Shown here piece by piece: positions 3,190 to 55,071 of a DNA stretch of 64,000 nt (its first letter is position 1; every line of letters starts with the position of its first letter). The notes under the pieces were generated by a model that was not told where the DNA came from, did not search any database, and saw only the letters and a list, made by a program, of their open reading frames with translations. This DNA comes from an uncultured bacterium. GTDB taxonomy: Bacteria; Babelota; Babeliae; Babelales; Vermiphilaceae. Location: NCBI GenBank assembly GCA_963707655.1, contig OY970172.1, positions 704,001 to 768,000 of the forward strand, given 5' to 3'. The position numbers and the translations under genes were made by a program.

Positions 3190-3612
3190 ATGAAAAAATT
3201 ATTTCTGCTTTCCTGCATGTTAATGCTACAGCACATACATGGCATGGATGAAGTGGGTATGGGCGTTGAGCAGCCAAAAGGATATAACACAATATCTTTA
3301 GCGCAATGGGGTATTTTATATAATGTTGCACACTGCAAGTACTACCTTGACAGCATGAAAACTATTATTAAACCCTTATCCAAGCCCGCAAAAAAACGTG
3401 TTATAAAAAAAGTAGCTGAAGAGCATCAAAATTTTCTTAACAACTACACGCCCACTCCTATAGGGGATTTAGATGAGCCGCAGGTCAAAGATTTAAAGAA
3501 ATTTTTTAAACGTCACAAGATCACTTTTCGGTACAAAAAGATGCTTACCGAGGAACAATTTTTTGCGCTTCAAAGACTTCAGAGGATGGCGCGAGAAGAG
3601 GCACTTGACTGA
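3190..3612 (+). CDS. Secreted hypothetical protein, orphan family member 3
   Basis: Signal peptide; ISLAQWGILYNVAHC, KVAEEHQNFL. Confidence 0.8.
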   Translation: MKKLFLLSCMLMLQHIHGMDEVGMGVEQPKGYNTISLAQWGILYNVAHCKYYLDSMKTIIKPLSKPAKKRVIKKVAEEHQNFLNNYTPTPIGDLDEPQVKDLKKFFKRHKITFRYKKMLTEEQFFALQRLQRMAREEALD

Positions 3613-3650
3613 GCTTACAAAGCATCGTTAACTCTTGCCAAGTAAAATAT

Positions 3651-4058
3651 ATGAAAAAAATATTTCTCATTTCTTGCATATTAATGCTCCAACAAATAAA
3701 TAGTATGGATAGCGTGGGCGCGGGCATGGAGCGGCCAAAGAAAAACGAGTATACAACAGTATCTTTGGCGCAATGGGCTACTTTGTATAATGTTGCACAC
3801 TGCACCGCACAACTTGACGAAATGAAAGCTATTATAGCGCCTTTGTCCAGGCGGGCGAAAAAACTTGTACGGGCAAAGGTAGCTGAAGAACATCAAGATT
3901 TTCTCACGCGCGACTACACGCCCTTTTATTTTCCACACTGGCAGCAGAATGAAGTCAACGCTTTAAAGTTTTTTTTTAAACGCTACAATGTCACGTTTCA
4001 ATACAAAGCCGTGAAGACGGCACGTGAGATTCTAGAGGAGATAAAAATGGAGTGGTGA
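3651..4058 (+). CDS. Secreted hypothetical protein, orphan family member 4
   Basis: Paralog of 3190-3612 (VSLAQWATLYNVAHC, KVAEEHQDFL). Confidence 0.8.
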   Translation: MKKIFLISCILMLQQINSMDSVGAGMERPKKNEYTTVSLAQWATLYNVAHCTAQLDEMKAIIAPLSRRAKKLVRAKVAEEHQDFLTRDYTPFYFPHWQQNEVNALKFFFKRYNVTFQYKAVKTAREILEEIKMEW

Positions 4059-4080
4059 ATCTACCCACAAAAGCATTGTT

Positions 4081-4127
4081 AACTCTTGCGCAAAACGGCT
4101 TCCTGAATGGTTTGCTTTATCAGATCA
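4081..4127. repeat. Diverged copy (41/47 nt) of 4615-4661, the 3' end of the phospholipase gene
   Basis: aactcttgcgcaaaacggcttcctgaatggtttgctttatcagatca vs aacttttgcgcaaagcgacctcttgaatggcttgctttatcagatca. Confidence 0.85.
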
Positions 4128-4145
4128 GCTAATTAGAGAAAATAT

Positions 4146-4592: not shown

Positions 4593-4612
4593 ACTTCTCG
4601 CTCAAAACATTT

Positions 4613-6184: not shown

Positions 6185-6214
6185 TGTGAGAATCCTTTTT
6201 TTAATCCTCTGTAT

Positions 6215-6733: not shown

Positions 6734-6745
6734 GTTTGCTCACTC

Positions 6746-7731: not shown

Positions 7732-8382
7732 TTAGCTGGCCGCTACTGCTGACACATTCTTTTTGTTATCTGCAATAGTTGCGGTTGCTTTTTTGTTAGC
7801 CGCATACTTTGTATTCATTGCGCCGATAAGTTTATCACTTACATCGGCTTTAGCTGAACTATAGAGTATTTGACCGGTTGTTTTATCAGCTATGATATCA
7901 ATGCTTTCTGCTTGAGCAATGGTTGCTGCTGATTCACGCACTTCTTTAAGAATTCTTTCTGATGCTTTTGCTTGCAACCCTTGGAACTCTTGATTTTTCT
8001 CTTCTACCAGAACTTGGTAATCACGTTTTGCTTTTACCAATCTCTTTTCTTCTTTTTCACGTGATGCTTCACTCATTGTTGCTTTTTTGCTGTCATAAGC
8101 CAAAATGTCTTGTTCTATTTCTTTGCCTTTTTGGGTTATTTCTGTGGACATTTTTTGATTTGTGTCTGACAAGCCGAGTGTTACTTCTGATCCCAATGAC
8201 GATTTTTGCATCACTTCAAATGCATCAACAACGCGTATGTTGAGCTCTTGCCCCTTTTTATCCCCAGCGGCAGCAACTTTTGCTTCAGGAGCTTTCACCT
8301 GAGCAGCCGGTTTTGAATCTGCCAATGCAGTACCAACCAAAGAAGCGCCAAGAATGGTCAAAATTATTCTGTTATTTTTCAT
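7732..8382 (-). CDS. skp: OmpH/Skp-family periplasmic chaperone
   Basis: Signal peptide, IRVVD beta-strand, long coiled coil, C-terminal IDII..K....LY....DVSD.LI pattern. Confidence 0.8.
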   Translation of the reverse strand: MKNNRIILTILGASLVGTALADSKPAAQVKAPEAKVAAAGDKKGQELNIRVVDAFEVMQKSSLGSEVTLGLSDTNQKMSTEITQKGKEIEQDILAYDSKKATMSEASREKEEKRLVKAKRDYQVLVEEKNQEFQGLQAKASERILKEVRESAATIAQAESIDIIADKTTGQILYSSAKADVSDKLIGAMNTKYAANKKATATIADNKKNVSAVAAS

Positions 8383-18921: not shown

Positions 18922-20106
18922 TTAAACGGCGACTCTTAACAGTTCAGATAGGGTAATAATACCCTGCGCTACCTTGCGAGCACCGTCAACCAATAAGGGT
19001 TGCAATCCGTCATTGCGTGCCTGCGCAATAATGTCATCAACAATCGGAGAATTAACAATTAAAGAGCGCAAGTTACCGGTCATAACCAGCAACTCAAAAA
19101 TACCTACACGGCCCTTATATCCCCGGCCTTTGCAGGACCCACAGCCAATGCCTTTATATAGACATTCAACCATTAATCCCATCTGTTGTAACATGAGCTG
19201 CTCTTCTTCACTTGGTTCAACCATCACACGGCATGCCAGGCAAATTTTTCTTGCCAGGCGCTGGGCAAGCACACCGGTTAGCGAAGCGTTGATTAAAAAT
19301 GGCTCAATGCCCATATCCATTAAACGCATGATGACGCTTGGCGCATCATTGGTATGTATGGTGCTTAATACCAAATGCCCTGTCAGCGATGCCTCCAGTG
19401 CAATTTGTGCCGTTTCACGGTCACGAATTTCCCCCACCATTACGATATCGGGGTCCTGGCGCAACACAGAGCGCATTCCTTTTGCAAAAGTAAAACCGGC
19501 ATCAGGGTTTACTTGACCCTGCGTCACCCCCAAAAGGTTATATTCAACCGGATCTTCCAGCGTGATAATATGCTTTTCAGCAAGATTAAGAGTATCAAGA
19601 GCCGCATAGAGCGTGGTAGTTTTTCCCGCACCGGTGGGGCCGCATACTAATAAAAATCCCTGCTGCTTACTCAAAAGCTCCTGAACGGTAAAATACATCT
19701 GCGAATCAAAGCCCAACGAATCAAGCTTTATTGTTTGGGCGGAGCGATCCAAAATACGCACCACCATGTTTTCACCGTACAAAGAGGGAAACGTGGATAC
19801 GCGCAAATCTATTTCTTTATGTTCGTACGCGATACGAAATTTACCGTCTTGAGGAATGCGCTTTTCAGCTATGTCAATGCGCGCAAGCACTTTGAGGCGT
19901 GCGCTCAACTGACTCATAAATGCTGCTTCGATAATTTGTTGATCGTATAAAATGCCATCTACACGAAAACGGATACGTCCTGAGTGCGCTGCCGGTTCAA
20001 TGTGAATGTCTGAGGCAGATTGATCAATGGCTGCATATAACAATGAATTAACCAGCCGAACAATGGGCGCTTCTTCATGAAGTGTATGCGATTGTAATCC
20101 AATCAC
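18922..20106 (-). CDS. GspE/PilB-family secretion ATPase (N2 and ATPase domains only)
   Basis: [40 protein letters not shown], tetracysteine motif. Confidence 0.93.
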   Translation of the reverse strand: MIGLQSHTLHEEAPIVRLVNSLLYAAIDQSASDIHIEPAAHSGRIRFRVDGILYDQQIIEAAFMSQLSARLKVLARIDIAEKRIPQDGKFRIAYEHKEIDLRVSTFPSLYGENMVVRILDRSAQTIKLDSLGFDSQMYFTVQELLSKQQGFLLVCGPTGAGKTTTLYAALDTLNLAEKHIITLEDPVEYNLLGVTQGQVNPDAGFTFAKGMRSVLRQDPDIVMVGEIRDRETAQIALEASLTGHLVLSTIHTNDAPSVIMRLMDMGIEPFLINASLTGVLAQRLARKICLACRVMVEPSEEEQLMLQQMGLMVECLYKGIGCGSCKGRGYKGRVGIFELLVMTGNLRSLIVNSPIVDDIIAQARNDGLQPLLVDGARKVAQGIITLSELLRVAV

Positions 20107-20639
20107 CCTTCACCTTCTTCAATCTCTTCTATTTCTTTACGCTCCTCATCAGCTGATTCCAAATCTTCAACGAGATCATAATCATCAGTCAATGACTTGT
20201 CGTAATATTCTTTAACCGCATCTTCAATATCGCGGGCAATGCCAACATAAAATTGAATATCATCAGAGGTATATTTTCGTAACGCAGGCAACAAATCTGC
20301 ATTACCCGGATCGCTCGCTGCTATCATCAATATATCTTCATCAATCTCTACCGGAATAATGTTATTGCGTAACAAAAAATCCTTAGGGAAATCGCGCACG
20401 AGCAAATGATCAAAAAAATAACCTTCTACATCAAAAAAAGGTACTTGATAATAACTGGAAAGCGCTTTAAGAGTCTCTTCTTTATCAACAAAGGCTTCTT
20501 CCAATAAAAATTCTATGAACCAATCGTGAGACGATTGAGAGAAGCCTTTTTGCAAACCTTCTGCTTCAGACGTGGAAATAACTTTATTTTTTGCCAGTAT
20601 TGCCGAAATTGCCTGGGCAAATTCTTGCTGGTTTATCAT
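20103..20639 (-). CDS. Stand-alone GspE/PilB N-terminal (N1/MshEN-like) domain protein
   Basis: FP.DFL.RN.IIPV...E..L.IA.SDP pattern of the GSPII_E N-domain; 4-bp overlap with the ATPase ORF. Confidence 0.75.
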   Translation of the reverse strand: MINQQEFAQAISAILAKNKVISTSEAEGLQKGFSQSSHDWFIEFLLEEAFVDKEETLKALSSYYQVPFFDVEGYFFDHLLVRDFPKDFLLRNNIIPVEIDEDILMIAASDPGNADLLPALRKYTSDDIQFYVGIARDIEDAVKEYYDKSLTDDYDLVEDLESADEERKEIEEIEEGEG

Positions 20640-21790: not shown

Positions 21791-22990
21791 ATGAAAAAAT
21801 ATATACTAGTCTTGGGCATGCTTGAAATGTGCTCACTGACATGCATGGATAGTAAATCAGCCCAAAAGACCATTTCTCATTTTTTTGTGATTAACAAAGA
21901 AATGACCCTACCACAATTTGTCTCGTCCAGGTTCCAAGCACAGGGAATCAATGCTGGCTTGCAAAACTTTAAACAAAGACTGACTTGTGTCCCATGTAAT
22001 TACAAGACTGAAAGGGCTTGGGAATACGACGAACACTCAAGAACTAGAAAGCACCAAGCGCTAACAAAAATCGCTACGACAGACCAAGAGCGCCGGATTC
22101 AAGCAGCATGGAATAGACACCAGAAAAAATTCATTTGCGCTTGTAATACAACCTTTCTGAATGTGTTTCAATTTGAAAGGCATCACTGCATTGCACAAGA
22201 AACTTTAGCAAATTTCATGCATTCCGAACAAGACCTGATGTGTGTCCCTTGTAATTATTATGCTAAAAGCGCTTATGAATACAAGACGCACGTCGAAAAA
22301 ACTGTTCGACACCAAGCGCTAATAAAAATCGCCACGACTGATCAAGAGCGCCGAGTCCAAGCAGCGTGGGATAGAGAACGGAAAATATTCATTTGCGCTT
22401 GTAATAAAACTTTTCTGAATGTGTTTCAATTTGAAAATCACCAGTGCATTCCACAAAAAACTCTAGCAAGTTGCATGAATTCCGAACAAAAACTGGCTTG
22501 TGCCCCATGTAATTATGAGACTAAAAACGCTCGGGACTACATCCGACACGTTAACACATCTATGCTACACCAAGCGCTAACAAAAATCGCTACGACCGAC
22601 CAAGAGCGCCGGATTCAAGCAGCATGGAATAGAGAACTGAGAAGATTAATTTGCGCTTGCAATAAAGCTTTTCTGAACGTGTCTCACTTTGAAAGGCATC
22701 ACTGCAGTAAAACTCAATTTTTAGCAAATAACACTGATCAAAGCGATCTAGGTTTCAATGAAGAACTACAAGATGGACAGGATGTTATTAGAGATGTTCA
22801 GAGCGCTATGGATAAGCACTCGATTCAGGAAAATGGCCGGCTAGATAGTTTTTATCCAAGCATCACGTATGATGACCAAATAGATTCAACATCGTATCAA
22901 GATGAACAGGACCTTGCTCTTGGCACTGATGAGGATTTGCGTGAATGGTTGGGAAACATGACCGCATCTTCTCATGAAAAAGATGCCTAA
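21791..22990 (+). CDS. Secreted tandem double-zinc-finger repeat protein 1 (3 modules plus acidic tail)
   Basis: Signal-like N-terminus; 3x [C-x2-C-x12-H-x5/6-H]-QAL.KIATTDQERR.QAAW-[C-x-C-x12-H-x-C]; D/E-rich C-terminus. Confidence 0.88.
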   Translation: MKKYILVLGMLEMCSLTCMDSKSAQKTISHFFVINKEMTLPQFVSSRFQAQGINAGLQNFKQRLTCVPCNYKTERAWEYDEHSRTRKHQALTKIATTDQERRIQAAWNRHQKKFICACNTTFLNVFQFERHHCIAQETLANFMHSEQDLMCVPCNYYAKSAYEYKTHVEKTVRHQALIKIATTDQERRVQAAWDRERKIFICACNKTFLNVFQFENHQCIPQKTLASCMNSEQKLACAPCNYETKNARDYIRHVNTSMLHQALTKIATTDQERRIQAAWNRELRRLICACNKAFLNVSHFERHHCSKTQFLANNTDQSDLGFNEELQDGQDVIRDVQSAMDKHSIQENGRLDSFYPSITYDDQIDSTSYQDEQDLALGTDEDLREWLGNMTASSHEKDA

Positions 22991-26996: not shown

Positions 26997-27989
26997 TCAA
27001 TGAATGAATTGTAAACATCTGGCGGAGCGCACCCGTTTAAAAAAATCAATCGGGTGTTGTAGCAGATCAAAAATCCACCAATCATATTCACTATCAACTG
27101 AAAAAATCCTAAAAAGAATTCTCCCATGAATCAGCCTGCCATCCAATGGTCCAATAAAACGACAATCTCTACTTCCTTGTCTATTGTCCCCCATCACCCA
27201 ATACTGATTCTTGCCTAATTCAACATAAAATTCATCGGAACAATTCCAGCGGCTCTTGCCTTCACACCGCTCTCTGTCACAAGTCGGATTTCGTGTTAGT
27301 GGCGTTTCGGCCTCCAATAGTATCAAATCCCCTTTTTCGTCTCTAATAAGGCGATTTTCTCTTAACAAATAAAATGGTTGCTTATTGAAAGGCACTGACG
27401 GATCATACGATCGCGGATTCGTATGGTCTGCCATAAATTCTTCAACGGCATTTTTATTGGCGCGTTGCACATCTCCTTGCAACAAGGTCTTGTCTTGTTC
27501 TTGTTTAATCCGCCCGTACAAAGTCTCCGGATCTTCATCAAAGCTCATAGCCAAAGGATATTTGTTTAAATACGGCTCATCTAATTTAAGGCTATTCACA
27601 TAAACTACCGGCTTGCCATCCTCTATAACGCCCTTAACAATATCCCCCGGCACACCAATCACTCGCTTGGTCCAATTGCTTGGCCCCCATACATAATTTT
27701 GGAAAAGAGACATGCCAAAAGAAGAGGAGTAATGAAAAAGCGGATCATTGAATGAGATAATTTCGCCTCGTTGCGGCTTACGAAAAAGATAGGTTGCTTT
27801 ATCGGCAAAAAATCTTTCTCCCACGAGCATTGTTGTTTCCATTGATCCGGTAGGAACTTGATAGAGACCAAAGCCAAAGGTTCTTATTAAAAAAATAACC
27901 GTGACCCACAGCAATATCTCGCGCCAACCCCCATCTCTGCATTGTTTATATAAAGATTTGTTTGATTGCTTCTGTTTTGAATGCGCCAT
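26997..27989 (-). CDS. lepB: Signal peptidase I (paralog A)
   Basis: VPTGSMETT (Ser), TKRVIGVPGD (Lys), MGDNRQGSRDCRFIG. Confidence 0.93.
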   Translation of the reverse strand: MAHSKQKQSNKSLYKQCRDGGWREILLWVTVIFLIRTFGFGLYQVPTGSMETTMLVGERFFADKATYLFRKPQRGEIISFNDPLFHYSSSFGMSLFQNYVWGPSNWTKRVIGVPGDIVKGVIEDGKPVVYVNSLKLDEPYLNKYPLAMSFDEDPETLYGRIKQEQDKTLLQGDVQRANKNAVEEFMADHTNPRSYDPSVPFNKQPFYLLRENRLIRDEKGDLILLEAETPLTRNPTCDRERCEGKSRWNCSDEFYVELGKNQYWVMGDNRQGSRDCRFIGPLDGRLIHGRILFRIFSVDSEYDWWIFDLLQHPIDFFKRVRSARCLQFIH

Positions 27990-28627: not shown

Positions 28628-29602
28628 CTACTTAACAAATTGCAAGCATCTGCTCCAGCGGATACGCTTGAAAAAATCAATCGGATGACGCAAGAGATCA
28701 AAAATAATCCAGGTATGTGCGCTGTCAACAGAGAAAATTCTAAATAACATTTTTCCATGAATGAGTGAGCCGTCGATTGGTCCAAAGAAACGGCAGTCAT
28801 AGCTACCTTCGCGATTGTCTCCCATGCCCCAGTATTGATTTTTACCGAGCTCAACATAAAACTCATCAGTACCGTTCCAATAACTGTTACCTACGCGAAA
28901 TGCTTTGTGGTGCTTCGATTTTTCTAGAGGCGTGCCCGGCCAGCGCAATTCTATTTCACCTGCTTTATTTCTTCTTACTCCGCTTTCTTTAATATTATAA
29001 AACGGTTGGTGATCAAATGGCTTTGAAGGGTCGTACGTTTTCCAGCGAGTGCTGTAGCTTGCTTGTTCTGAAGAAAAACTTTGCAATTCTTCCATACTTA
29101 TTTGACCGCTGAGTACATATTTTAGATTTTCTTTTTCTATCGTTTTGGGATCTATGCCATAGATACCAATGAGAGGATATTGGTTAAGATACGGTTCATT
29201 AAGCTTTTCGCCATTGAGGTAAACCGCTGTTTTGCCATCTTCAATAACTCCCCTGATTGTGTCACCGGGAACAGCAATCAAACGCTTGGTTACGTTGGTT
29301 GGACCCCAGACATAATACTGAAAAAGTTTTTTGACAGGGTTTGAGGAATATTTGAAGGTCACATCATTTAACGAGATAATTTCCCCGCGTCTGGGTGCGC
29401 GAAACCAATAGGTCAGCTTATCAGCAAAAAAACTTTCGCCAATCAGCATGGTTGTTTCTGCCGATCCGGTTGGCACTTGGTACAAGCCAAAACCAAATGT
29501 TCTGACAGCAAAGATAACAACGATCCAAAGAAGCAATTCGCCCCAACTGTTTTTACCAAAATTTTTTTTGTAAAAAGGCGTATTCGATTTTTTTTCCAAC
29601 AT
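28628..29602 (-). CDS. lepB: Signal peptidase I (paralog B)
   Basis: VPTGSAETT, TKRLIAVPGD, MGDNREGSYDCRFFG. Confidence 0.93.
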   Translation of the reverse strand: MLEKKSNTPFYKKNFGKNSWGELLLWIVVIFAVRTFGFGLYQVPTGSAETTMLIGESFFADKLTYWFRAPRRGEIISLNDVTFKYSSNPVKKLFQYYVWGPTNVTKRLIAVPGDTIRGVIEDGKTAVYLNGEKLNEPYLNQYPLIGIYGIDPKTIEKENLKYVLSGQISMEELQSFSSEQASYSTRWKTYDPSKPFDHQPFYNIKESGVRRNKAGEIELRWPGTPLEKSKHHKAFRVGNSYWNGTDEFYVELGKNQYWGMGDNREGSYDCRFFGPIDGSLIHGKMLFRIFSVDSAHTWIIFDLLRHPIDFFKRIRWSRCLQFVK

Positions 29603-30570: not shown

Positions 30571-31272
30571 CTATATTAGTAGGAGATCTTCCCGAGCCAT
30601 CCAGCCCTTAAGATGCTTGTCTTTTATTTTTATCCACTGCTCACGCTGCTCTACAATAGCAACTTCTGTTGCATGCGGCAATTGTGCAATACTTTGATAG
30701 CTCGTATCAGGACCGGTAAATATCTGTGCCTGATCTTTTGTTATTATGCCAATCTGCCGATGCATTCGATAATACTTTAGACCCACTGCTCCTGCAGCAC
30801 ACAACGCGACAAAAACAAGAATCAGCAATAACAACCATCGCCTCTTCTTGTACCACGCGCACGCGAGCCCCAAAAGTATACACCAAAAAAACAAAAATAA
30901 GAGCTGTGTCGCCAAAGGGGACCAAGAGTCAACAACGGACCATGTCGTATCAAAAAAATTTGGCTCTTTACCCAAATGCTTTTCTGCCATGCGGATGTTT
31001 GCAGCAATCGCCTGATACTGATGACCGGAGGCAGTTTTTGCTGCTTTGCGCCAATACGCGTAAGCCCTTAGATAATCTCCCTGTTGATAAAAACAGTTGC
31101 CTAGGTTATACCAAACCGCATTACTTGTATTGTTCATGCGTTCATAGCTTTTTATCGCATCGGCATATTTTTCTTGCATATATAATTGATTGCCGCGCAA
31201 AAACGTTTCTTCGTCCGCACTATTGGCGTGAAGAGCAGAAAACATACAGAAAAAAACAAATGCTATAATCAT
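30571..31272 (-). CDS. batE: BatE-like TPR plus SH3b membrane protein
   Basis: TPR YNLGNCFY, two TM segments, SH3-like EQREQWIKI...KGW; last gene of the bat cluster. Confidence 0.8.
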   Translation of the reverse strand: MIIAFVFFCMFSALHANSADEETFLRGNQLYMQEKYADAIKSYERMNNTSNAVWYNLGNCFYQQGDYLRAYAYWRKAAKTASGHQYQAIAANIRMAEKHLGKEPNFFDTTWSVVDSWSPLATQLLFLFFWCILLGLACAWYKKRRWLLLLILVFVALCAAGAVGLKYYRMHRQIGIITKDQAQIFTGPDTSYQSIAQLPHATEVAIVEQREQWIKIKDKHLKGWMAREDLLLI

Positions 31273-32984
31273 AAAGAAGCCCTTTTCTTCAAAAAGGTGA
31301 TCCACTTTTCCGCCTCGTTAAAGAGCATATCGTGTGACAATGTAGCCGTGAAAAACCGCGCTTGAGTCAGCGCTATGAAAAAATGTTGCCACTCTACCAA
31401 GTCCTGCCGCGTTGCATGTTGTTCGAACCACTGCTCAATTGCAGCCCCGGTTACTGCTGATGGCTCTTGTTTGAGAATTGCTGCAAAAAGCGCTATGAAA
31501 ACTGAATAAAGCTGGGCATAATCTTTTTTGGCGCGTGCGCTGATCAGGTCGGCGCGTGCAATGCGCATCAAGCGCCATCGTCTAAAGCTGGGTACTATTT
31601 CATCAATCATTATTTTATTGTGTATAGTGGCCACCCATACCATATATATCAGCGGCATTAGCGCCAAGAGGATAAATAGCCACCACGGCATATGAGCGCT
31701 ATGTCCGCGCATGCCATACAGATTACGAACAATCCCCTTAATTTCAGGGCGATCATTCTCGTTATGCCCTTTTTCATGTGCTTCTTCTTCATGAAAGAGC
31801 TGTTGCTGATTTTCAGATTTTAAAATTGTTACCGGCACTACATTAGTATGCATCGTGATATATCTATGCTGCTCAACATCAAAATAGGTAACTGATTGCG
31901 CAGGAATTTCTATCTCGCCCGCTTTTTTTGCCTGAATTACATATTCAAAACATTGCTTATCGCCGGCAAAATATTTTTTTGATTCATATACCTTTAATGC
32001 ATCGGGAATTTTTTGCAGCGGAAATTGCTCAAGATCAACATCTCCTTCAAGCGTTATCGTGAGAGTGGCCCCTTCCCCTTCATGCATTACTGACGGAGAA
32101 AGAGATGCATATATCTTTTGGCAATGACCAATACCATCAACTCTGCCTTTGTACGGCGGAAGCGGATCAACCATAAGAGTAGCCGCATTGGAATATATAG
32201 TTTTTGCAATACGTGTGCCAAAAAGGGTTGAAAAAAAATCATACTGCTCCGGGCGCATCGTGTAATCAATCCGGTATGCAGGGACAACTATTTGACCGGT
32301 CTTGTTGGGATATATTTCCCATTGCCATTGAATATAGTCGGCCACAACCCCGTTAACCTCTTCGCGCCCAACACGCGCTTCTTGCCGGTTTTTAATTATG
32401 TATCCCTGATCTTTCTCCGGCTCGGGTTCAACAACCGTATGAAACTCAATAGACGGGTCAAGACGATAAAAACGGAGCGTAGCATATATTTTTTCGCCGA
32501 CTACTGCTTTTTCACTACTTAAAAACAAATGAGCCAAAGCTAACTCGTCATTCTTTTTTTGATGACGCTGTTGCTGATGCCGTTGCTGCTGACGAGCAAC
32601 TGCTTGATCACTCACTACAACTTCAATCGGCTCTGAGACCAAAACAGTAGTTCCTGATTTCACTCGTGCAGGGCCAAATGTGTAGGTGCCCGGTTTGTCA
32701 ATACGCGCAGCAAAACTATAGGTAACGCGTGATACCCCATTTATACTTACCATTTTAAAGCCGGTTCGGTGCAACGGGCCAATGGGGGATTTAATTTCAG
32801 GAGTAGAAAAATCTGCGGTGCCTCCTTCAATAGTCACTTCTAAATTAAAAGGTTGCCCGATTCCAGCTGTGTCTAATTGTTCGCCATTTGCCATGCGCGC
32901 ATCTAAACTGATTTGAGCATGCGTAACAGAAATAACACATATGAGAATCGACCATATAAAATTACCAACGCGGGGCATTACCAT
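31269..32984 (-). CDS. batD: BatD-family protein
   Basis: Signal peptide, SING, GTYTFGPA, repeated Ig-like beta segments, C-terminal TM; cluster position. Confidence 0.8.
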   Translation of the reverse strand: MVMPRVGNFIWSILICVISVTHAQISLDARMANGEQLDTAGIGQPFNLEVTIEGGTADFSTPEIKSPIGPLHRTGFKMVSINGVSRVTYSFAARIDKPGTYTFGPARVKSGTTVLVSEPIEVVVSDQAVARQQQRHQQQRHQKKNDELALAHLFLSSEKAVVGEKIYATLRFYRLDPSIEFHTVVEPEPEKDQGYIIKNRQEARVGREEVNGVVADYIQWQWEIYPNKTGQIVVPAYRIDYTMRPEQYDFFSTLFGTRIAKTIYSNAATLMVDPLPPYKGRVDGIGHCQKIYASLSPSVMHEGEGATLTITLEGDVDLEQFPLQKIPDALKVYESKKYFAGDKQCFEYVIQAKKAGEIEIPAQSVTYFDVEQHRYITMHTNVVPVTILKSENQQQLFHEEEAHEKGHNENDRPEIKGIVRNLYGMRGHSAHMPWWLFILLALMPLIYMVWVATIHNKIMIDEIVPSFRRWRLMRIARADLISARAKKDYAQLYSVFIALFAAILKQEPSAVTGAAIEQWFEQHATRQDLVEWQHFFIALTQARFFTATLSHDMLFNEAEKWITFLKKRASL

Positions 32985-38687: not shown

Positions 38688-40941
38688 ATGAAAAAATTAT
38701 TAATTGTAGAGTCACCCGCCAAAATTAAAACGATTACCAAGTTCTTGGGAAAAGATTTCAAGATCATGTCCACTATGGGCCATGTCAAGGATCTTCCTAC
38801 CAAAGAGCTGGGGGTGACCATTAATAAATCTATAAATATTGATTATGTTCCCATTAAGAACAAAGAGAAAACTATTGCGGAAATCTGCAAAGCTGCTTCA
38901 ACTTCTGATGAAATCTATTTAGCGCCCGATCCTGACCGTGAGGGTGAAATTATTGCCTGGCACATTGAGCAGGAAATACAAAAAGTCGTTAAAAATAAGG
39001 CAAAAATTCATCGCATCACCTTTAACGAAATTACCAAACCGGCCATGCTTGAAGCAATTGATCACCCGGGAGATGTTGATCTTGATAAAGTTGCCGCTCA
39101 ACAAGCACGCCGCGTGCTTGATCGCTGGGTGGGCTATGAAGTATCCCCTATTTTATGGAAAAAATTAGCTCCGGGCCTTTCTGCCGGGCGCGTGCAATCT
39201 GTTGCTCTCCGCCTGATTGCCGATCGTGAAGAAGCTATTCGCGCCTTTAAGCCAGAAGAATATTGGACCGTTGTCGGCCAATTTTTACATGGTAAAGATT
39301 CTATTGAAGCAGAACTGACTGAAATAGGCAAAAATAAAGCTGAAATCAAAAATCAACAGCAAGCTGATGAGCTGGTTGAAAACATCCAAAAAGAAAGCTA
39401 TGTTATTGATTCGATTATTGATAAAGCAACGCACCAAAAATCCACTGCCTCCATTTATGACCAGTACTTTGCAGCAGGCAGCATTTAATCGCTTGGGCTT
39501 CAGTGTTAAAAAAACCATGCAAGTTGCCCAACAATTATATGAAGGTATGCCGCTAGAAGACGAAGCACTCCCGTTGCGTTAATTACCTATATGCGTACCG
39601 ATTCGTTCCGCCTTTCTGATACGGCGTTAAAACAAGCGCGCGATTTTATTGGCAAAAATTTTGATAAAGAATATTTGCCCAAAGAGCACAACGTTTATGA
39701 AAAAGCAAAAGGAAAAGGCAAAGCAGCTGCAGCGCAAGATGCTCACGAAGCGGTGCGTCCGATTAATGTGAACATCACTCCTGAGAAAGCACATAAATAT
39801 CTACCCAAAGATGTTGCAAAGCTTTATGAACTTATTTGGAAGCGCTTTGTTGCCTGCCAAATGAAGCCAGCATTATATGCACAGCGCCAAGTGGTTATTA
39901 AAGGGGGAGAATTTACCTTTAAAGTCACCGGTTCAACCCTCATATTTGATGGATTCTTGAAAGTGTACGCCGCGGACGAAGATGAAAAAGAAGACAAAGA
40001 ATTATTCCTCAAGGGCTTAAAGCTAAAGAAAAAGTTAATCTTAAAAAAGTGATGCCAAAGCAGCATTTTACTCAACCGCCACCACGATATACTGAAGCTT
40101 CATTGGTCAAAGAGATGGAAAAAGAGGGCATTGGCCGACCAAGTACCTATGCCACTATCATGAACACTATTCAGGCGCGCCACTATACCGCTCTTGATAC
40201 AAAAAAAGATTTACTCCGACTGAACTGGGAATGACGGTAACCAAAATTTTGGTTGAAAATTTACCAAAGATTATGGATCTCAAGTTCACGGCACATATGG
40301 AAGAAGATCTTGATAAAATTGCTCAAGGTGATCTTGATCGAGATACGTTATTGCGCGGGTTTTATGAAGCGTTCCAGCAAGATGTAAAAGAATTCAAAGG
40401 CAAAGATGGTAAAAAAGTTGCCGAACCGACCGACATTACCTGTCCAGAATGTGAAAAACCCAATCTGGTGATTCGATTTGGAAAAGCAGGAGAATTTTTG
40501 GGTTGCCCAGATTATCCTGATTGCGCGTTTACTACCAATTTTAAACGTGATGAAAAAGGGGATATTGAAATTGTAAAAACTGAGGGCCCTAAACTGCTCG
40601 ATGAAAAATGTCCAAAATGCGGCAAACATCTGCGCCAGGTTATTGGTAAGTTTGGTCCCTTCGTTGCCTGTTCAGGGTATCCTGACTGCAAATATATTAA
40701 GCAAAAAAAGGCGGAAGTTCCCTGCTTATCATGTGGCGGCTCATTGGTTGAACGTCGTTGGCGCGGCGGTACTTTCTGGGGATGTTCAAACTATCCAAAA
40801 TGTAAGTTCGCCGTATTTGGTGATATTGAAGAAACCCCATGTCCGCAGTGTTCGCGCGCTTACATGGCAAAGAAAGTTGATAAACAAGGAAACGCAACCC
40901 TGCTTTGCACCGATAAAAAATGTGGGTACAAAAGTAGTTAA
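38688..40941 (+). CDS. topA: DNA topoisomerase I with C-terminal Zn ribbons (at least 4 frameshifts in this sequence)
   Basis: [51 protein letters not shown] and C4 Zn-ribbon repeats spread over consecutive frames. Confidence 0.93.
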
Positions 40942-43550: not shown

Positions 43551-44162
43551 CTAAAATGCATAACCCAAGCTTGCGCCAAATGCAAATCCACCTATTTGCA
43601 TCCTGCCATTGCTGAATACATTTGCCATCTTTGGACAGACTCTTTTCTTTTCATACGAATATTCGCCGAAAATGCCGAGTGAGAAACAATCGGCGAGCAA
43701 CACATTAAAACCGGTATTGGCAAATAAGCCGATACCACTGCCTTTGATTACGCAGTCAACATACGGTGAATTGTTGTGTTGATGAAAGTGGAAGTAGCGT
43801 GGCCCTATTGCAAAGAAATAGTAAAAGCGTTCACAGAAATTTACTATGGGCCTTAAACCAATATCAACCGGTACTACAGCCAAGCTTGTTTTTTCGCAGG
43901 AGTTCAATGCATGGCCCCGTGCGTGGCGATAGCCGATGCTGCCATAAAGATCAAGATAATCACATAAAGGGAGCGATACACTCCCTTGAATTTCAAAGCC
44001 ACCATGATTGTAGATGTTCTTAAGCGGAGATGCAGAAAAGAAAAAGTAGCTTGGCTTTATTTCGAGCAACGGTGTCACATCGGACGCATACTGTGTCAAT
44101 GCGCACAGCAGCAGAGAAAGTCGGGCGATTTTTTTATACATACTCATATCCTTTATTTTCAC
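43551..44162 (-). CDS. Small outer-membrane beta-barrel protein (OmpA/OmpW-like, about 8 strands)
   Basis: Signal peptide, alternating aromatic/Gly strands, C-terminal beta-signal ASLGYAF. Confidence 0.78.
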   Translation of the reverse strand: MKIKDMSMYKKIARLSLLLCALTQYASDVTPLLEIKPSYFFFSASPLKNIYNHGGFEIQGSVSLPLCDYLDLYGSIGYRHARGHALNSCEKTSLAVVPVDIGLRPIVNFCERFYYFFAIGPRYFHFHQHNNSPYVDCVIKGSGIGLFANTGFNVLLADCFSLGIFGEYSYEKKRVCPKMANVFSNGRMQIGGFAFGASLGYAF

Positions 44163-46693
44163 GGAACGGTGACGGTAACCGGTGCACTCATATTGCCATT
44201 GGCATCAAACGCAACTAACGAATATACTACCACAACGCCCGGTACCTGATTATGATCTTGGTACACGGACGTAGCGGCGCTTACCGTAGCGATTTGTAAG
44301 CCATCACGATACATAAGATAACCGGTCACTCCGGCTGATGAACTCGATGTCCATGTCAGCTGATTATAGAGTTCATATTCAAATCCAAAATTATTTTTCT
44401 TTTGCATACCCTGAAGATTTGATGGGGGTAAAATAGTTGGTGCAAAACCCAAGAAATCAAATTGCACAAACGTAGGGTTGCCGATCGGTAGATAAGAGAG
44501 CGAATAATTCGGAGTTGTTCCCGTAAAGGTTACGGAATCAAAGGTGCCGGTAATGGCAGAGGAAGTGAGAATGGTGTATGTTCCCGGAATGGCACTTGGA
44601 TCTAGGTCGATTTCCAAGGTGCCTGCTAAGGATGCAGGTCCGGTAACAGCGACTAAAGATGTGCCGCCGGAATCGATTTCGATATGGACAAGGCTTCCGA
44701 GGGTGCCCGTAACTGGATCTGCTGAATTGAGGGTCAAACTGCCAAGAGTGAGTGTTCCTCCCGCTATCTGGAGAGATCGTTCCGGAATTGACAAAGACAT
44801 TTCCGGTCAATGTCCCGGTCCCGCTCAACGTACCTCTTTGCGCGCTAAAGCCAATGTTTCTACAGACAAAAATCGATGCTGAATCGATTGATCCATTCAC
44901 TTTGAAATTCGCATTGTTGATCGTAATGTTCCCTTGATAATCAGTTGTTCCATTGTAAACAACAGTTCCATTTCCTTTGACAAAGACATTTGTTCCTCCT
45001 GCGCCGAAACTGGTGTCATCAATAAACGCGACTTGGTCTCCGAGTGTCAAAAGATCATTAGCATCGTTCGCCATGAATGTGAGAGAAGAACCTGCGCGCA
45101 GGAAAATACTATTTCCCAATGCTGATCCATCGGAGCCATCTGAACCACCACCGGAGACCGCCAGTTCCATGAGTTCCTGCTTGTGTTGTATTATTTGACT
45201 GTATTGAACGTGGTTGGAATCCCCGGAGAGTGCTTGTAGGGTGAAATTCAAACCGCTATCCACAAAGATAGCGCCTCCCAGACCGCTTCCGCCGCCACCA
45301 CCTCCGCCGCCAAAGCCTGATCCAACGGTAGCTGGCCCCAACTCCTCCAGATCCTCCACCCAGATTTCCTATATCAGTTCCACCTGAGGCAGTGGAGCCA
45401 TTAGAGGGTCCACCGCCTGCACCGCCACCGCCGCCAAGAGAATTACCACCTTCTGCAGGCGTAATACCAGATTGGTTGACTCCTCCGCCACCGCCCCCTC
45501 CGCCAACTCCTCCCGATCCACCTTGTACCGTATAAGCATATATCAGAAGCACCCGGTGCCAGCGCCACCGCCACCGCCCCCGCCATAGCCACCACTCCCA
45601 GCTTGTCCGTCAAATTCATTGCTAGAACCAGTTATGACGACTCCGCCGCCTCCGCCTCCTCCCCCATCTCCTCCATTGCCTCCGGAAGGCATAATGCACT
45701 ACCTCCTGGTGGTATAGATGCCTTGAGGCTGAGATCCATTCGATCCGGCGCTTCCACCACCGCCGCCGCCCGCATTACCGCCTCCGCTATCATCTCCACC
45801 GCCGCCGCCGCCCGCATTATTTCCTCCACTATTACCTCCTCCACCAGAACCAGCGGTAATTGAGAGACCATAACCATTTCCATCCTGTCCGCCATCTTGA
45901 TCCGAGCCTCCATTCCCCAGATTCGTGAGCGTTCCTATAGTGGCGCGAGATCCTAGGCCTCCGCCTCCGCCACCGCCGCCTCCACCGACTGTCGTCTGTC
46001 GAAAGAGTGACATCTCCACCATCTCCACCAAAACCCCTCCTCCAGCGCCTCCGGTGCTTCCGGTGGTTGTAATAGAACCTCCATTTCCGCTAAAGCCGCC
46101 GCCACCGCCACCCCCTCATTGCCTGTAAAGAGACCTAAATAACTTCCTCCATTTCCACCAACAGCAGAGCAATCGTTGATCGATACATTCATCAAGGTAA
46201 TTGAAGGATTTGAACCATTTAAAAAGGATTGAGGTGCGTAAATGGCCCCTCCGGCACCCATGCCACCGCCGCCGCCTGAAATTCCGTCTCCGCCATTGCC
46301 TCCTTTTGCGGTCAGGTTTTGAAAGATCATGTTTTGGATCGTCACATTCCCCATTGGGATAAAAAATCCGCTGTAAGCGCCGCTGTTACCGTCAATAGTG
46401 ACGGTAGGAGTAGAGCCTGGGTTGCCAATGGTGATATTCACAGGATTTGAGGAATTGTTAATAATCGGCAGAATTCCATTGAGTTGAATAGTCATCGGAG
46501 AGGCAAAAACAATCGCATAATCATCGGGTGTTGTGTTTAAACCTTGATTCATTGTATTCAAGCAATATCTCAGATCACCCACCTCTCCAATGCCACCCGG
46601 ATTATTATCTGAGCTTATTGTTACATTGAGCGTTGTTAAGGCACACAAAGAATGTGAAGTGAAAAGAAAAATCAAATATTTGAATTTGAACAT
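44159..46693 (-). CDS. Glycine-rich surface protein with autotransporter-passenger-like strands and a C-terminal FN3-like domain (multiple frameshifts in G/C runs)
   Basis: Signal peptide, GDLRYCL, GGNGG/GGAI repeats, GTLSGTGTL.G.V...SGTISP passenger motif, terminal PPSNL...LTW...VTGY.MYRDG...Y.D...YSLVAFD.NGN.S. Confidence 0.75.
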
Positions 46694-46767
46694 GAGAAAC
46701 ACCTTTAATTATTTTTTAGCGTCAGGCAACTATCTTTTTAGCATCATAGTGTGTAAGAAAAAATTAT

Positions 46768-51849: not shown

Positions 51850-51878
51850 AATGTATAAATTCATCATCTTTTTGTCAA
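51850..51878 (-). promoter_or_regulatory. Sigma70-like promoter for the tRNA-Lys/tRNA-Glu operon
   Basis: TTGACA-17 nt-TACATT on - strand. Confidence 0.6.
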
Positions 51879-51907
51879 GAAAAACAATATTTTATTATAT
51901 ATGTTCT

Positions 51908-53269
51908 TTATTTGCTCGGCAGTATTAATTGACTGATATAACAGTAAATCAATGTTCCCAAAAGATCCATTAATGTTGCCAAAAATGGTCCCGCCGAAAA
52001 TGCCGGGTCTATATTAAGCCTTTTAAGCAGCAGTGGAATTAAGCTACCCAAATTTACGGCAAAAAAGACAATGGCATAGAGTGCAGAACTGATCACCACA
52101 CTATACAGCAAGCTGCCGGTCGTCAAATATGCGCGCACAAAGCCAACACTGGCGAGTGCAAACGCCAAAAGAAGCGACATGAAAAATTCTCTGCGTAAAA
52201 AACGAAAAATATTAGTTGAACGTAATTCACCGGCCATCAACCCTTGAATAACTACTGCTGAAGTTTGTGAGCTAGAATTCCCTCCAGCGCCTACAAGCAT
52301 GGTGGTAAAAAACATCAATGGAACGATCATGGTATTTTCAAACGAACGCATAATAATAGCTGCAAACGATTGGGTAATCAGCAAAGTGATTAAAATTGAG
52401 CTGCGCTCGACAAAAAGACGCAAAAATGAGGTATCAAAATAGGCATATTTCATGGGAGCCAAGGCAGACATTTTTTGCAAATCCTCGCTGGCCTCTTCAA
52501 CCAATACATGAATTAAAGTTCCGCTTGGAATCACCCCCAAAAAATGATTGCCATCGCCGACTACCGGGATAGTGATTAAATCATAGTGCACCATTTTGCC
52601 GGCAATTTGTTCACGGTCCTCATCGGCCCGCGCCACAAATTCAGTATCTTTCATAATGGTAGAAATGCGTGCATTGGGACGGTGCAACACTAAATCTTCA
52701 AGCTTAATATACCCTACCAAGCGATGGGCTCTGTCAGTTATGTAAATCTGCTGATGAATATCTTTACTCAGCTGCAGGCGCTGCATCAACTTAATACTTT
52801 TTTCTACGGTAAAGTCTTCCATCAAAGTAAAGACCTCTGTTTCCATGATACCGCCGGCAGACTCCGGATGAAATTTCATCAACGAAAGCACTCTTTGTCG
52901 CGCTTTTTTGTGGAGCAAATTTAAATTCTCTTTCAACTCATGATCAGAAAAGAGATCAAAAAGATCGGTGAGCTCATCTGCAGGGAGGCCGTTCAGTGCT
53001 TCAGCCTGTTCATGCTCCGTCATAAAAGAGAGGCTTTGTGCCTTCATAACGTCAGAAAAATCATTAAAGACATCCAGCTTGAGCGTCTTGGGAAGCCGCT
53101 CAAAGAGTTGCTGAAAAATTTCGGGTGAGCTGTCGGTAAAAAAATTTGCAATATCGGCCGGATGAAGATCAATAAATTCTTGCCAGAGAGGTTTACCCAG
53201 GGTTGGGTCTTCTTGCAAAACAGCCTGCATATTGTCTCTCATTTCTTGCAGAATATTTTTAGCATCCAT
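51908..53269 (-). CDS. mgtE: Magnesium transporter MgtE
   Basis: LHPADIA, PESAGGIM, CBS pair, GGNSSSQ, DPAFSAGPFLATLMD. Confidence 0.94.
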   Translation of the reverse strand: MDAKNILQEMRDNMQAVLQEDPTLGKPLWQEFIDLHPADIANFFTDSSPEIFQQLFERLPKTLKLDVFNDFSDVMKAQSLSFMTEHEQAEALNGLPADELTDLFDLFSDHELKENLNLLHKKARQRVLSLMKFHPESAGGIMETEVFTLMEDFTVEKSIKLMQRLQLSKDIHQQIYITDRAHRLVGYIKLEDLVLHRPNARISTIMKDTEFVARADEDREQIAGKMVHYDLITIPVVGDGNHFLGVIPSGTLIHVLVEEASEDLQKMSALAPMKYAYFDTSFLRLFVERSSILITLLITQSFAAIIMRSFENTMIVPLMFFTTMLVGAGGNSSSQTSAVVIQGLMAGELRSTNIFRFLRREFFMSLLLAFALASVGFVRAYLTTGSLLYSVVISSALYAIVFFAVNLGSLIPLLLKRLNIDPAFSAGPFLATLMDLLGTLIYCYISQLILPSK

Positions 53270-53455
53270 AAGTGCCCCCTCCAACGGTCCAGAATTTATT
53301 ATTCCACCGCCGTGAACATTGGTTTATCTGTTCTTTTATTTCTTTTAGTACCATACTAAAGCATTCACTTCTCAATGTCTATGCTAATTCACCATTTGAC
53401 TTTAAAATCCAATATTTTAAGCTAAATAAAGGGGTTTTATAAACAGAGGGACATT

Positions 53456-54439
53456 ATGACGCAACCATTATCAATACTATCAAATAGCATTTTTACCTTT
53501 CAGGTAAAAGCCGATCAGGCAGCATGGCGCCTTGACAAGTTCATGGTTACCCAATTTCCCGCATATTCGCGTACTTTTCTGCAAGAAGTCATTAGCAATA
53601 GCCTGATTACTATTAATGGTATATCAGTGAGCAAATCAAGCGCACAGCTTAAAGAGCATGACATTATTAAGGTGACGTTTCCTCCCGCTGCCACGCAAGC
53701 CACTCAAAACGCGGCCAAAAAAGATTATTCTTACAATATTTCTATTGTAGCCAAAGAGGAACACTTTCTGATCATCAATAAGCCTGCCGGCCTGATGGTG
53801 CACAAAGCAGAAGGCAGTGATAGTGAGCCTACTGTTGTTGACTGGATCATCAATAATTTTGAAGAAATCAAACACGTGGGCGCTATTGATCGTCCCGGCA
53901 TTGTACATCGCCTTGACAAAGAGACCTCCGGCCTTTTAGTTATTCCCCGCACCAACCACGCTCACACTCAGTTTGGCGCCATGTTTAAGGACCGCACCAT
54001 TCACAAAACATATCTTGCTCTTGTGCACGGAGCGCCGCCACAAGAGGGAACTATAAACCTTCCTGTTGGCCGCCATCCAACACTGCGCCACAAAATGACC
54101 ACTTTTGCCCCCCACGATCGAAAATCAGGAATTATTCGTGATGCAATAACGCACTACAAAGTTTTACGCTATTTTAAGGATGCGGCGCTGGTGGAAGCCA
54201 AGCCGGTAACCGGCCGCACCCATCAAATCAGAGTACATTTTGCTGCGTTGGGCCACAGCCTTTTGGGGGACAAAACCTACGGGAGAGCATCAAAACTGAT
54301 ACACAGACACGCGCTGCATGCCCATGCCATTGAATTTGAATTTGAAAACAAGAGCCATCTGTTCACCTGTCCACTACCACAAGATTTTGAATCAACGCTA
54401 GATAATTTAGAAGCTGTTGTGCTAAAATTGGTCCAATAA
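53456..54439 (+). CDS. rluD: RluA/RluD-family RNA pseudouridine synthase (S4 domain)
   Basis: RLDKF S4 start, INKPAGLMVH, RPGIVHRLDKETSG, TGRTHQIRVH. Confidence 0.9.
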   Translation: MTQPLSILSNSIFTFQVKADQAAWRLDKFMVTQFPAYSRTFLQEVISNSLITINGISVSKSSAQLKEHDIIKVTFPPAATQATQNAAKKDYSYNISIVAKEEHFLIINKPAGLMVHKAEGSDSEPTVVDWIINNFEEIKHVGAIDRPGIVHRLDKETSGLLVIPRTNHAHTQFGAMFKDRTIHKTYLALVHGAPPQEGTINLPVGRHPTLRHKMTTFAPHDRKSGIIRDAITHYKVLRYFKDAALVEAKPVTGRTHQIRVHFAALGHSLLGDKTYGRASKLIHRHALHAHAIEFEFENKSHLFTCPLPQDFESTLDNLEAVVLKLVQ

Positions 54440-54519
54440 AAGCGTAATTGCAACGAGATAGAGCTCTATCAAAAAGAAGCACGATGGCCTAGACTGAACC
54501 GTAGAAAAAAGGGGATTTC

Positions 54520-55071
54520 ATGAAGCAATCACGATGGCTCATTGGTATCATGTTCTACGCAGCACTATCACATGGTGCATATGTCTATAGTATGGAAGAA
54601 GCATCTGATAGGGACTCTACAAGTGGTCCGAGACGTTTTCATGACTACGTTGCATCACGCGTGAAAGATCTCGGGTCAGAAATCTCTTCCCCCATACCTA
54701 TCGACGCATTGAGCTATTGCGAAAAAAAATATCATACAAATAAACCCTTGCTAAAAACAGATTCATTTGGATTATCACTTAATGATTATCACAACTTGTA
54801 CAAAGTAGCGCATGGAAAAAAAGGTGGAAAAACATTACGACGAATCTTAAAAAGGGTGCCTTACAAATCTATTGCTATAAGGACTGATTCTGGGAGATTC
54901 ACCGCTCTTCTACGTGAAAAAGAAATTATTGTTAAGATTCTTATGGATGAACATCATGAATTCTTATCTCGCTATAAGCGTAACTGGCCCATTACCTTTC
55001 TGCAAGAAAAGCGATTCAAAGCGCTCCGCAAATATGAAAACTACCCTTTTTTTATTAATGATCCGATATAA
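54520..55071 (+). CDS. Secreted hypothetical protein, distant member of the 2168-4592 orphan family
   Basis: GLSLNDYHNLYKVAHGKK and DEHHEFL match family motifs; signal ending VYS-MEE. Confidence 0.72.
   Translation: MKQSRWLIGIMFYAALSHGAYVYSMEEASDRDSTSGPRRFHDYVASRVKDLGSEISSPIPIDALSYCEKKYHTNKPLLKTDSFGLSLNDYHNLYKVAHGKKGGKTLRRILKRVPYKSIAIRTDSGRFTALLREKEIIVKILMDEHHEFLSRYKRNWPITFLQEKRFKALRKYENYPFFINDPI

Follow-up and report, generated by a model that had tools for sequence, protein, structure and literature searches.

Methionine at the predicted signal peptidase I cut of orphan and eukaryote-like secreted proteins in an uncultured Vermiphilaceae bacterium

Secreted proteins of the window

We analysed a window of 64,000 nucleotides (contig OY970172.1, assembly GCA_963707655.1, positions 704,001 to 768,000) from an uncultured Vermiphilaceae bacterium whose genome is 89% complete and whose host is probably a protist. 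Thirteen genes of the window encode a hydrophobic leader followed by a small residue and Met (Table 1), and all 13 junctions read as the initial annotation had given them. Signal-peptide cut sites were assigned with our own simple Met-blind predictor rather than SignalP, benchmarked on 13 E. coli proteins only. It placed the cut directly before the Met, as had been proposed, in 12 of the 13 proteins; for the product of the gene at 54520 it preferred SHG/A. The junctions had been said to span unrelated families, but not all of them do: the genes at 3190, 3651 and 4146 form one paralogue family and those at 21791, 23109 and 24738 are C2H2 zinc-finger paralogues, so that the 13 represent about nine families.

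The statement that most orphan secreted proteins carry this Met held narrowly inside the window, where 13 have it and ten orphan or ankyrin leader proteins (2168, 2680, 9058, 18834, 44141, 46693, 49345, 51272, 55685 and 60447) do not, but it failed genome-wide (66/204). Absence of Met from envelope proteins was borne out for Skp, BatD and the BatE-like protein (LHA/N), but not for an envelope-class TPR (BatC-like) gene starting at 34044 that the annotation had omitted; this reads FGS-M-QA, with the blind site one residue before the Met. The reported T2SS/T4P-like parts are present.

Table 1. Leader-protein genes, controls and secretion-related genes of the window (a slash marks the predicted cut)
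Feature	Position	Strand	Details
Orphan, 140 aa	3190..3612	+	18-aa leader, IHG/MD; +1 Met codon 3244-3246; paralogue of 3651, 4146, 2680
Orphan paralogue, 135 aa	3651..4058	+	INS/MD; +1 Met codon 3705-3707
Orphan paralogue, 148 aa	4146..4592	+	ISG/MD; +1 Met codon 4200-4202
Counter-example, paralogue of 3190/3651/4146	2680..3105	+	junction without Met; blind site AQS/L; LHG-S three residues on
Orphan, 272 aa	12752..13570	-	24-aa leader, VQA/MS; one hydrophobic segment further on
Secreted C2H2 zinc-finger array, 399 aa	21791..22990	+	LTC/MD; Pfam zf-C2H2
Secreted C2H2 zinc-finger array, 524 aa	23109..24683	+	LTC/MD
Secreted C2H2 zinc-finger array, 440 aa	24738..26060	+	LTC/MD
Orphan, 200 aa	37671..38273	-	25-aa leader, SFA/MD
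Orphan, 152 aa	40976..41434	+	THA/MQ
Orphan, 241 aa	41505..42230	-	ASS/MG
Orphan, 219 aa	42532..43191	-	AYG/MS
Orphan, 129 aa	47253..47642	-	LCA/MP
Orphan, 183 aa	54520..55071	+	VYS-ME at residue 25, 5 residues past blind site SHG/A; site ambiguous
Signal peptidase I paralogue 1, likely cutting enzyme	26997..27989	-	TIGR02227 above cut-off
Signal peptidase I paralogue 2	28628..29602	-	58% identical to paralogue 1
Control Skp/OmpH	7732..8382	-	ALA/DS, without Met
Control BatD	31269..32984	-	THA/QI, without Met
T2SS/T4P ATPase (T2SSE) and MshEN genes	18922..20639	-	more T2SS/T4P pieces at 59439-62373

Methionine at +1 in the genome and its relatives

The enrichment of Met at +1 is real, genome-wide and sharp at the predicted signal peptidase I site: the Met-blind predictor found it in 64 of 290 leader proteins, compared with 3–8 at each of positions +2 to +12 (binomial p = 8e-45). 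Gln occupied +1 in 10 of the 290. Among the 307 curated Gram-negative signal peptidase substrates that served as our reference set (PMC2638155, supplement 2), none has Met at +1.

Met was distributed by cargo class. The annotation had suggested comparing orphan and ankyrin proteins with envelope proteins genome-wide, and the comparison came out in favour of enrichment, with +1 Met in 66/204 orphan or eukaryote-like proteins and 1/78 envelope proteins and enzymes (p = 5e-10; 0/29 and 1/49, respectively). The split was repeated in a second protein set (23/95 versus 1/33) and persisted with one protein per family (50/158 versus 1/70). These are counts under the Met-blind rule; a second, permissive rule gave 87/204 orphan or eukaryote-like proteins (43%). 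The rule thus behaves as a soft, lineage-dependent preference affecting about a third, and up to 43%, of such cargo. Secreted C2H2 zinc-finger proteins all carried the Met (9/9), WD40 and ankyrin cargo of this genome hardly ever under the blind rule (0/6 and 1/10), and Met was not invariant within families. A common alternative start among cargo was Ala/Ser/Gly-Glu. Starts with M, A, S, G, T, V or P were found in 19/25 eukaryote-like and 31/78 envelope or enzyme cargoes (p = 0.002). Among non-Met cargo, A/S/G/T/V/P ends were not significantly enriched (47/99 versus 23/61), and a general avoidance of destabilizing ends by such proteins was rejected. Met proteins were shorter (median 180 versus 260 aa), whereas neither cysteine, acidic or proline content nor a C-terminal aromatic residue separated them from the others. 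Their K/R content was slightly higher.

Across 18 genomes of relatives, 69 of 417 leader proteins had +1 Met, with a patchy distribution ranging from 0/17 to 16/39 per genome. Signal-peptide ankyrins (4–16 proteins per genome) were similarly variable, with Met in 10/15 in G140, 3/16 in G070 and 3/9 in G105, although the three G105 proteins read M-Y-A and their Met may lie at −3. The sampled part of a same-genus genome yielded 30 orthologue pairs, with almost no Met-class protein among those having a partner; Met was lost in some orthologues.

Pooling this genome (64) and its relatives (69) gave 133 +1 Met junctions, 115 without near-duplicates. The +2 residue was D, E, Q or N in 97/133, compared with 45% of curated substrates, and D or E in 78/133, compared with 34%; small residues were depleted (26/133 versus 45%, p = 8e-10), as were bulky hydrophobic ones (4/133 versus 7.5%, p = 0.05). 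Such a bias would be expected from a need to retain the Met and to avoid Met-hydrophobic ends (PMC11441550). The 34% in the curated set also illustrates that an acidic +2 is common in bacterial substrates generally.

Host persistence as a proposed role, and its alternatives

Judged from composition and position, a Met, mostly Met-Asp/Glu/Gln, behind the signal peptidase I site may well let exported proteins persist in the host cytosol, a reading that we regard as evenly balanced. Signal peptidase I (LepB) would cut before the Met, and the mature protein would leave by a secretin-based (T2SS-like) route or in vesicles. Host Met aminopeptidase would not remove an unformylated Met that precedes an acidic or amide residue, and such an end would fall outside the listed Arg/N-degron and GASTC/N-degron ends, which would cover the residues that bacteria commonly have at +1 (Ala, Gln, Asp, Glu, Gly). 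More tentatively, dozens of unrelated effectors might acquire, through the cut, an unformylated Met-Asp/Glu end like that left by eukaryotic initiation and thereby escape host N-degron surveillance; phytoplasma SAP54 could have come to the same device independently, and the junction could mark host-delivered effectors in the sequences of uncultured intracellular bacteria. The N-degron rules applied here may not be those of protist hosts, and the most host-like cargo, WD40 and ankyrin proteins, stands against persistence in mostly lacking the Met.

The annotation had described these ends as substrates of the acetyltransferase NatB. Their composition agrees, with NatB-type Met-Asp/Glu/Asn/Gln in 45/64 here and 52/69 in relatives, but acetylation itself is doubtful because the accessible part of PMC11735805 describes NatB as co-translational, at the ribosome. 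Met aminopeptidases and NatA/NatB are likewise described as co-translational in the parts of PMC11735805 and PMC11441550 available, which also indicate that unacetylated NatB-type ends may be recognized by UBR1/UBR4 in animals.

Alternatively, Met(-Asp/Glu) could be recognized by the bacterium itself, either as a tag that directs proteins to one of its two secretin systems or into vesicles, or as the P1′ preference of a dedicated signal peptidase, which we consider unlikely. Such a role would fit the strict absence of Met from envelope proteins, the different −3 residue of the Met class (Ala/Ser in 13/64 versus 108/226 of the others, p = 9e-5, with mostly V, I, L or T instead), the two secretins and the lack of any match to TolC in a genome that is 89% complete, and the two LepB paralogues in the window. 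Against it, signal-peptide ankyrins range from 1/10 to 10/15 Met between lineages while all 10 genomes tested, including 5/5 Met-poor relatives, keep 2–3 secretins; paralogues differ at +1; and phytoplasmas, which lack an outer membrane, have the same junction. Nor does the number of LepB matches follow Met use, as G017 has one match and 16/39 Met whereas G019 has one match and 1/35, and a dedicated second LepB was rejected. The proposal in the annotation that Met tags proteins for a second export step is weakened by the secretins of Met-poor relatives and by the WD40 and ankyrin counts. An obligatory export tag is therefore less likely than host stability, with true export of the individual proteins being itself presumed.

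It is improbable that the Met is a functionless relic, the old initiator left at the junction when, in the making of a new effector, a signal peptide was added in front of the original start codon. Met proteins are short and fast-evolving, some orthologues lack the Met, and a signal-bearing GDP-fucose synthase-like gene has a likely relic Met at +2 in two genomes. However, enzymes with an evidently added leader (HAD, GNAT, Gmd, Ugd, Adk, GS) have +1 Met in only 1/49, and relics should smear over +1 to +5, where positions from +2 to +12 hold background only. Asp follows 36/64 junction Mets but 8/195 true starts, at which N, K, A and I prevail. Nor is a leader cassette shared: leaders of unlinked Met genes were no more alike than those of other genes (mean identity 1.98 of 12 versus 1.93), and this candidate was rejected. 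Codons at −1 and +2 were spread over synonymous choices, which, together with the differing leaders, indicates that constraint acts on the residue; a DNA-level or Kozak-like motif was rejected on the same codon spread and on the frequency of Gln at +2 in relatives.

In the Q-rule of Bacteroidetes (PMC5837995, PMC10653852), signal peptidase I substrates carry a Gln at +1 that glutaminyl cyclase then cyclizes. It seems very doubtful that the +1 Met here works in a similar way, shielding proteins while they reside in the periplasm or a vacuole, perhaps once a bacterial enzyme, for instance a secreted acetyltransferase, has modified it. Modified +1 Gln raises the abundance of exported proteins (PMC10653852, in part), and the genome encodes six leader-bearing GNAT proteins, three of them RimI-like below cut-off. 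The Q-rule, however, covers all compartments according to the accessible part of PMC5837995, whereas envelope residents here lack Met. The one secreted GNAT of the six used as a query was matched in 21/81 genomes, nearly all weakly; it is not conserved, and no conserved secreted acetyltransferase partner was found with this single query.

Finally, although our own codon-score gene caller chose the junction Met as start in 5 of the 13 window genes, it is highly improbable that this Met is an alternative or true start codon (giving a cytoplasmic isoform, with the leader an AT-rich artefact) or that the real cut lies elsewhere, since Shine–Dalgarno-like words precede 68/115 first ATGs and 0/115 junction Mets, small residues (A/G/S/C) occupy −1 in 115/175 and small or aliphatic ones −3 in 134/175 with no enrichment at −2 (38/175), and paralogous leaders have pS 0.27 and pN 0.14 (20 pairs chosen by amino-acid identity, hence biased). 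Even ordinary internal Mets are preceded by such words more often (90/1,534), and an internal start was rejected by this test. On these patterns, the leaders are probably Sec-type signal peptides that are translated from ribosome-binding sites of their own.

Related systems and significance

Like the Q-rule (PMC5837995, PMC10653852), the host-persistence reading involves a lineage-wide bias to one residue behind the signal peptidase I site, with a bearing on how stable the mature protein is. Unlike it, the residue is Met, the share is about 22% rather than about 70% of leader proteins, Met is confined to orphan or eukaryote-like cargo with a frequency that varies strongly between relatives, and no partner enzyme emerged from the one GNAT search. 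The leaders share a basic n-region, hydrophobic core, small −1/−3 residues and acidic early mature region with classical Sec/signal peptidase I peptides (PMC2638155), and differ from them in the +1 Met, shorter length (median 18–19 versus 23) and, in the Met class, frequent V, I, L or T at −3.

The closest parallel comes from phytoplasma SAP54/PHYL1 proteins (SVM signal, PF12113), which are exported by Sec, act as effectors in host cells and have Gly/Ala at the end of the leader, followed by Met-Asp/Asn. By eye, 23/25 SAP54 homologues in the supplement of PMC8026896 have a small residue followed by Met-Asp/Asn, whereas the surface protein Amp has VFA-D/N/A and SAP11 homologues start with Ala, Ser or Thr (Met in 0/24). 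Outside this order, the breadth of the pattern derives from that one supplement, and the main text of the paper does not contain the word methionine. The phytoplasma case concerns a single family of a wall-less organism, whose members share a leader cassette, in contrast to the roughly 50 unrelated families here, whose leaders are unrelated too, and three Pfam scans gave no PF12113 match. In the available parts of the reports on the Dependentiae Babela massiliensis (PMC4378268) and Chromulinavorax destructans (PMC6561590), gene sets are similarly rich in signal peptides and enriched in orphans and ankyrins, and a T2SS-type system is the sole secretion system reported; those parts do not describe the residue after the cut, and the word methionine is absent from both main texts. 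Genome size, the share of secreted proteins, ankyrins and secretins likewise suggest that the present genome belongs to this phylum. The literature searched contained no published description of a Met-at-+1 rule.

N-end-rule turnover of the Sec-secreted Listeria protein p60 in the host cytosol was reportedly described by Sijts et al. in 1997. That case concerns a single degraded protein, whereas the pattern here would amount to proteome-wide avoidance.

Because +1 Met never occurs in the curated Gram-negative signal peptides, a Met rule tied to one class of cargo comes as a surprise. If host turnover is the cause, the host N-degron code would be written into the parasite secretome, and the junction would provide a simple marker separating host-directed from envelope proteins in a lineage rich in secreted orphans. 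A practical cost is that the junction Met attracts gene callers as a false start, as it did ours in the window, thereby hiding signal peptides.

Methionine at +1 of predicted cleavage sites

Signal-peptide-like leaders were found in 403 of the 1025 genes that our own codon-model caller placed in the studied genome (single contig, 1.09 Mb, 41% G+C, 89% complete), a count made with a rule masking internal Met that includes a few false positives; 340 of the 403 lack later transmembrane segments. The window spans C1:704001-768000 of this genome. All 13 window junctions at which the initial annotation had reported Met directly behind the leader were read in the sequence, and a cut-site predictor blind to Met placed cleavage there in 12 of 13. 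The pattern also held genome-wide. After removal of lipobox-like leaders and scores <5, Met was the commonest +1 residue (64/290 leader proteins, versus 3–8 per position at +2 to +12; p = 8e-45), and other thresholds gave 69/316, 52/221 and 24/121. The predictor applies a simple rule instead of SignalP and puts some cuts in the wrong place, mostly undercounting Met; it found +1 Met in 0/13 proteins in 100 kb of E. coli, where its OmpA, TolB and CpoB cuts agree with the established sites. In a curated substrate set (PMC2638155 supplement 2), the share with Met at +1 is 0.00% for Gram-negative (n = 307), 0.6% for Gram-positive and 1.1% for eukaryotic proteins. Viewed from the Met itself, 175 Mets lay at residues 15–28; A, G, S or C stood at −1 in 115 (versus 367/1534 mature-region Mets), the −3 residue was small or aliphatic in 134, and position −2 showed no such enrichment. 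This is the (−3,−1) signature.

Distribution among cargo and relatives

The +1 Met is a real, lineage-restricted, cargo-specific rule. We assigned class labels from Pfam hits to the 307 of 403 leader proteins in fetched stretches, setting aside 25 as false positives (Met in 0/25). The proposed contrast between orphan and envelope proteins held: Met was present in 66/204 orphan and eukaryote-like versus 1/78 envelope and enzyme proteins (43/109 versus 0/45 in a first set, 23/95 versus 1/33 in a second), in 50/158 versus 1/70 with one protein per family, and in 87/204 versus 8/78 under a permissive rule. Leader-bearing ankyrin, WD40 and C2H2 proteins all occur in the genome, and the eukaryote-like class is uneven. 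Secreted C2H2 arrays, which are candidate eukaryote-type nucleic-acid-binding proteins, carry +1 Met in 9/9 (one family), ankyrins in 1/10 by the blind rule, with Met-Asp a few residues further in two more, and WD40 proteins in 0/6, starting mostly with Ala-Glu or Ser-Glu. Because Ala-Glu/Asp starts are ordinary among Gram-negative substrates (PMC2638155 supplement 2), only Met is exceptional. Glu follows at +2 in 21/38 A, S or G starts of orphan and eukaryote-like cargo, and genome-wide Ala/Ser/Gly-Glu begins most WD40 and several ankyrin cargoes, possibly a second, NatA-like start class, yet one near the bacterial default.

Sampling 20–175 kb from each of 18 same-order genomes gave +1 Met in 69/417 leader proteins (7–15 per position at +2 to +8; 58/398 without near-duplicate junctions), counts that convey breadth rather than significance because kin are not independent. 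The distribution was patchy: higher in G017 (16/39), G140 (7/20), G014 (6/19), G034 (5/27) and G085 (8/27, mostly two paralogue arrays), and low in G019 (1/35), G029, G105 and G070 (1/22 each), G036 (0/17) and G027 (0/7). In one widespread Pfam-negative orphan family (L018:10099-10638 in the table), Met lies at or beside the predicted site in 11/29 aligned leader-bearing homologues, 10 at the blind site, and in 8/12 database homologues; other members have S, G, E, D, Q, C, N or K. The family is well suited to testing gain and loss of +1 Met.

Features of the studied genome (G000; L numbers are stretches of it)
Feature	Location	Strand	Remark
Adjacent secretin pair	G000:C1 882702-889500		Same pair or trio in 10/10 relatives searched
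Six leader-bearing GNAT acetyltransferases	L008:3805-5058, L010:31-1004, L017:8891-9457, L018:6108-6608, L122:3422-4000		Three RimI-like, below family cut-off; the one searched was not conserved in the order
Signal peptidase I paralogues	window 26997-27989 and 28628-29602	(-)	58% identical, one gene apart
Pfam-negative secreted orphan family	L018:10099-10638 (G000:C1 240096-240638)		Matches in 32/151 genomes of the order, often tandem copies
Two secreted C2H2 zinc-finger tandem clusters	window 21791-26060; G000:C1 about 358600-364930	(+) for window cluster	Nine proteins
Gmd-, Fcl-, two Ugd-like, GT2, GT6 and NodZ-like enzymes	L121 (G000:C1 868001-888000)		All with signal-peptide-like leader; +1 Met absent
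Adenylate kinase, glutamine synthetase, three AAA ATPases, MutS_V protein	L128:15353-15994, L117:1552-2910, L135:9493-13406, L017:17912-19642		Signal-peptide-like leaders; normally cytoplasmic

Alternative explanations for the junction Met

The Met class has an altered −3 residue, which gives some probability to an explanation from the signal peptidase side. Duplication of signal peptidase I, of which several relatives also have two copies, showed no tie to +1 Met and was rejected as its cause. That +1 Met is an export tag, expected on host-directed cargo wherever the machine is present, is less likely: secretins number 2–3 in all 10 genomes tested (the studied genome itself has two, one best matching GspD, though below cut-off), while the share of signal-peptide ankyrins with Met varies (G140 10/15, G017 4/10, G070 3/16, G105 3/9, G019 1/4). 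The genome also has two Omp85 genes; TolC gave no match in this 89%-complete sequence. Relic start codons are unlikely to be the main source: enzymes that evidently gained leaders show +1 Met in 1/49, and visible likely relics sit at +2, not +1. Internal starts are excluded, with SD-like words before 68/115 leader ATGs versus 0/115 junction Mets, and N, K, A or I following true starts (Asp 8/195) versus Asp after 36/64 junction Mets; a DNA-level motif and a common leader cassette were also rejected.

Possible host stability and known parallels

With this genome and its relatives pooled, the residue after +1 Met was D/E in 78/133 (34% at curated Gram-negative +2, PMC2638155 supplement 2; p = 1e-8), D/E/N/Q in 97/133 (45%; p = 7e-11), small (A, G, S, T, V, C, P) in 26/133 (45%; p = 8e-10) and bulky hydrophobic in 4/133 (7.5%; p = 0.05, losing significance once de-duplicated). 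PMC11441550 gives R, K, H, L, F, Y, W, I, Met-bulky hydrophobic, N, Q, D and E as Arg/N-degrons, assigns Gly, Ala, Ser, Thr and Cys ends to a GASTC pathway, and states that Met aminopeptidases remove Met if the second residue is Val or smaller. Met-acidic therefore belongs to the few unacetylated ends that none of these lists covers. Such an end may let cargo escape N-degron recognition and Met clipping in a host, a function that the +2 bias fits. However, Met aminopeptidases and NatB are described as co-translational, animal UBR ligases may read unacetylated NatB-type ends (PMC11735805), the lists may not be those of protist hosts, and much host-like cargo manages without Met. Gene content agrees with published Dependentiae accounts (PMC6561590, PMC4378268), where we would place this bacterium, probably with a protist host.

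The nearest kind of rule is the Bacteroidetes Q-rule (PMC5837995, PMC10653852). Its Gln at +1 in most substrates and its use across all compartments are not seen here. Listeria p60 is reportedly the subject of an N-end-rule paper. In the portion of the PMC8026896 supplement available, with cuts judged by eye, Gly/Ala-Met-Asp/Asn ends the leader in 23/25 phytoplasma SAP54 homologues, SAP11 has Met there in 0/24 (Ala, Ser or Thr instead), and most Amp proteins shown have VFA-D. A literature search, whose coverage stopped short of most subscription journals and of Dependentiae supplements, turned up no paper describing Met behind signal peptides, either for Dependentiae or for any other intracellular bacteria.

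A topoisomerase I-like gene, read by eye (window 38688-40941, (+)), is broken into three ORFs, an ATPase is split at window 60662-62373 and a Met-aminopeptidase-family match contains a stop, which together suggest assembly indels. A secreted Gly-rich gene, autotransporter-like by eye, lies in several pieces at window 44159-46702 (-), adjoined by a leader-bearing orphan at 43551-44141.
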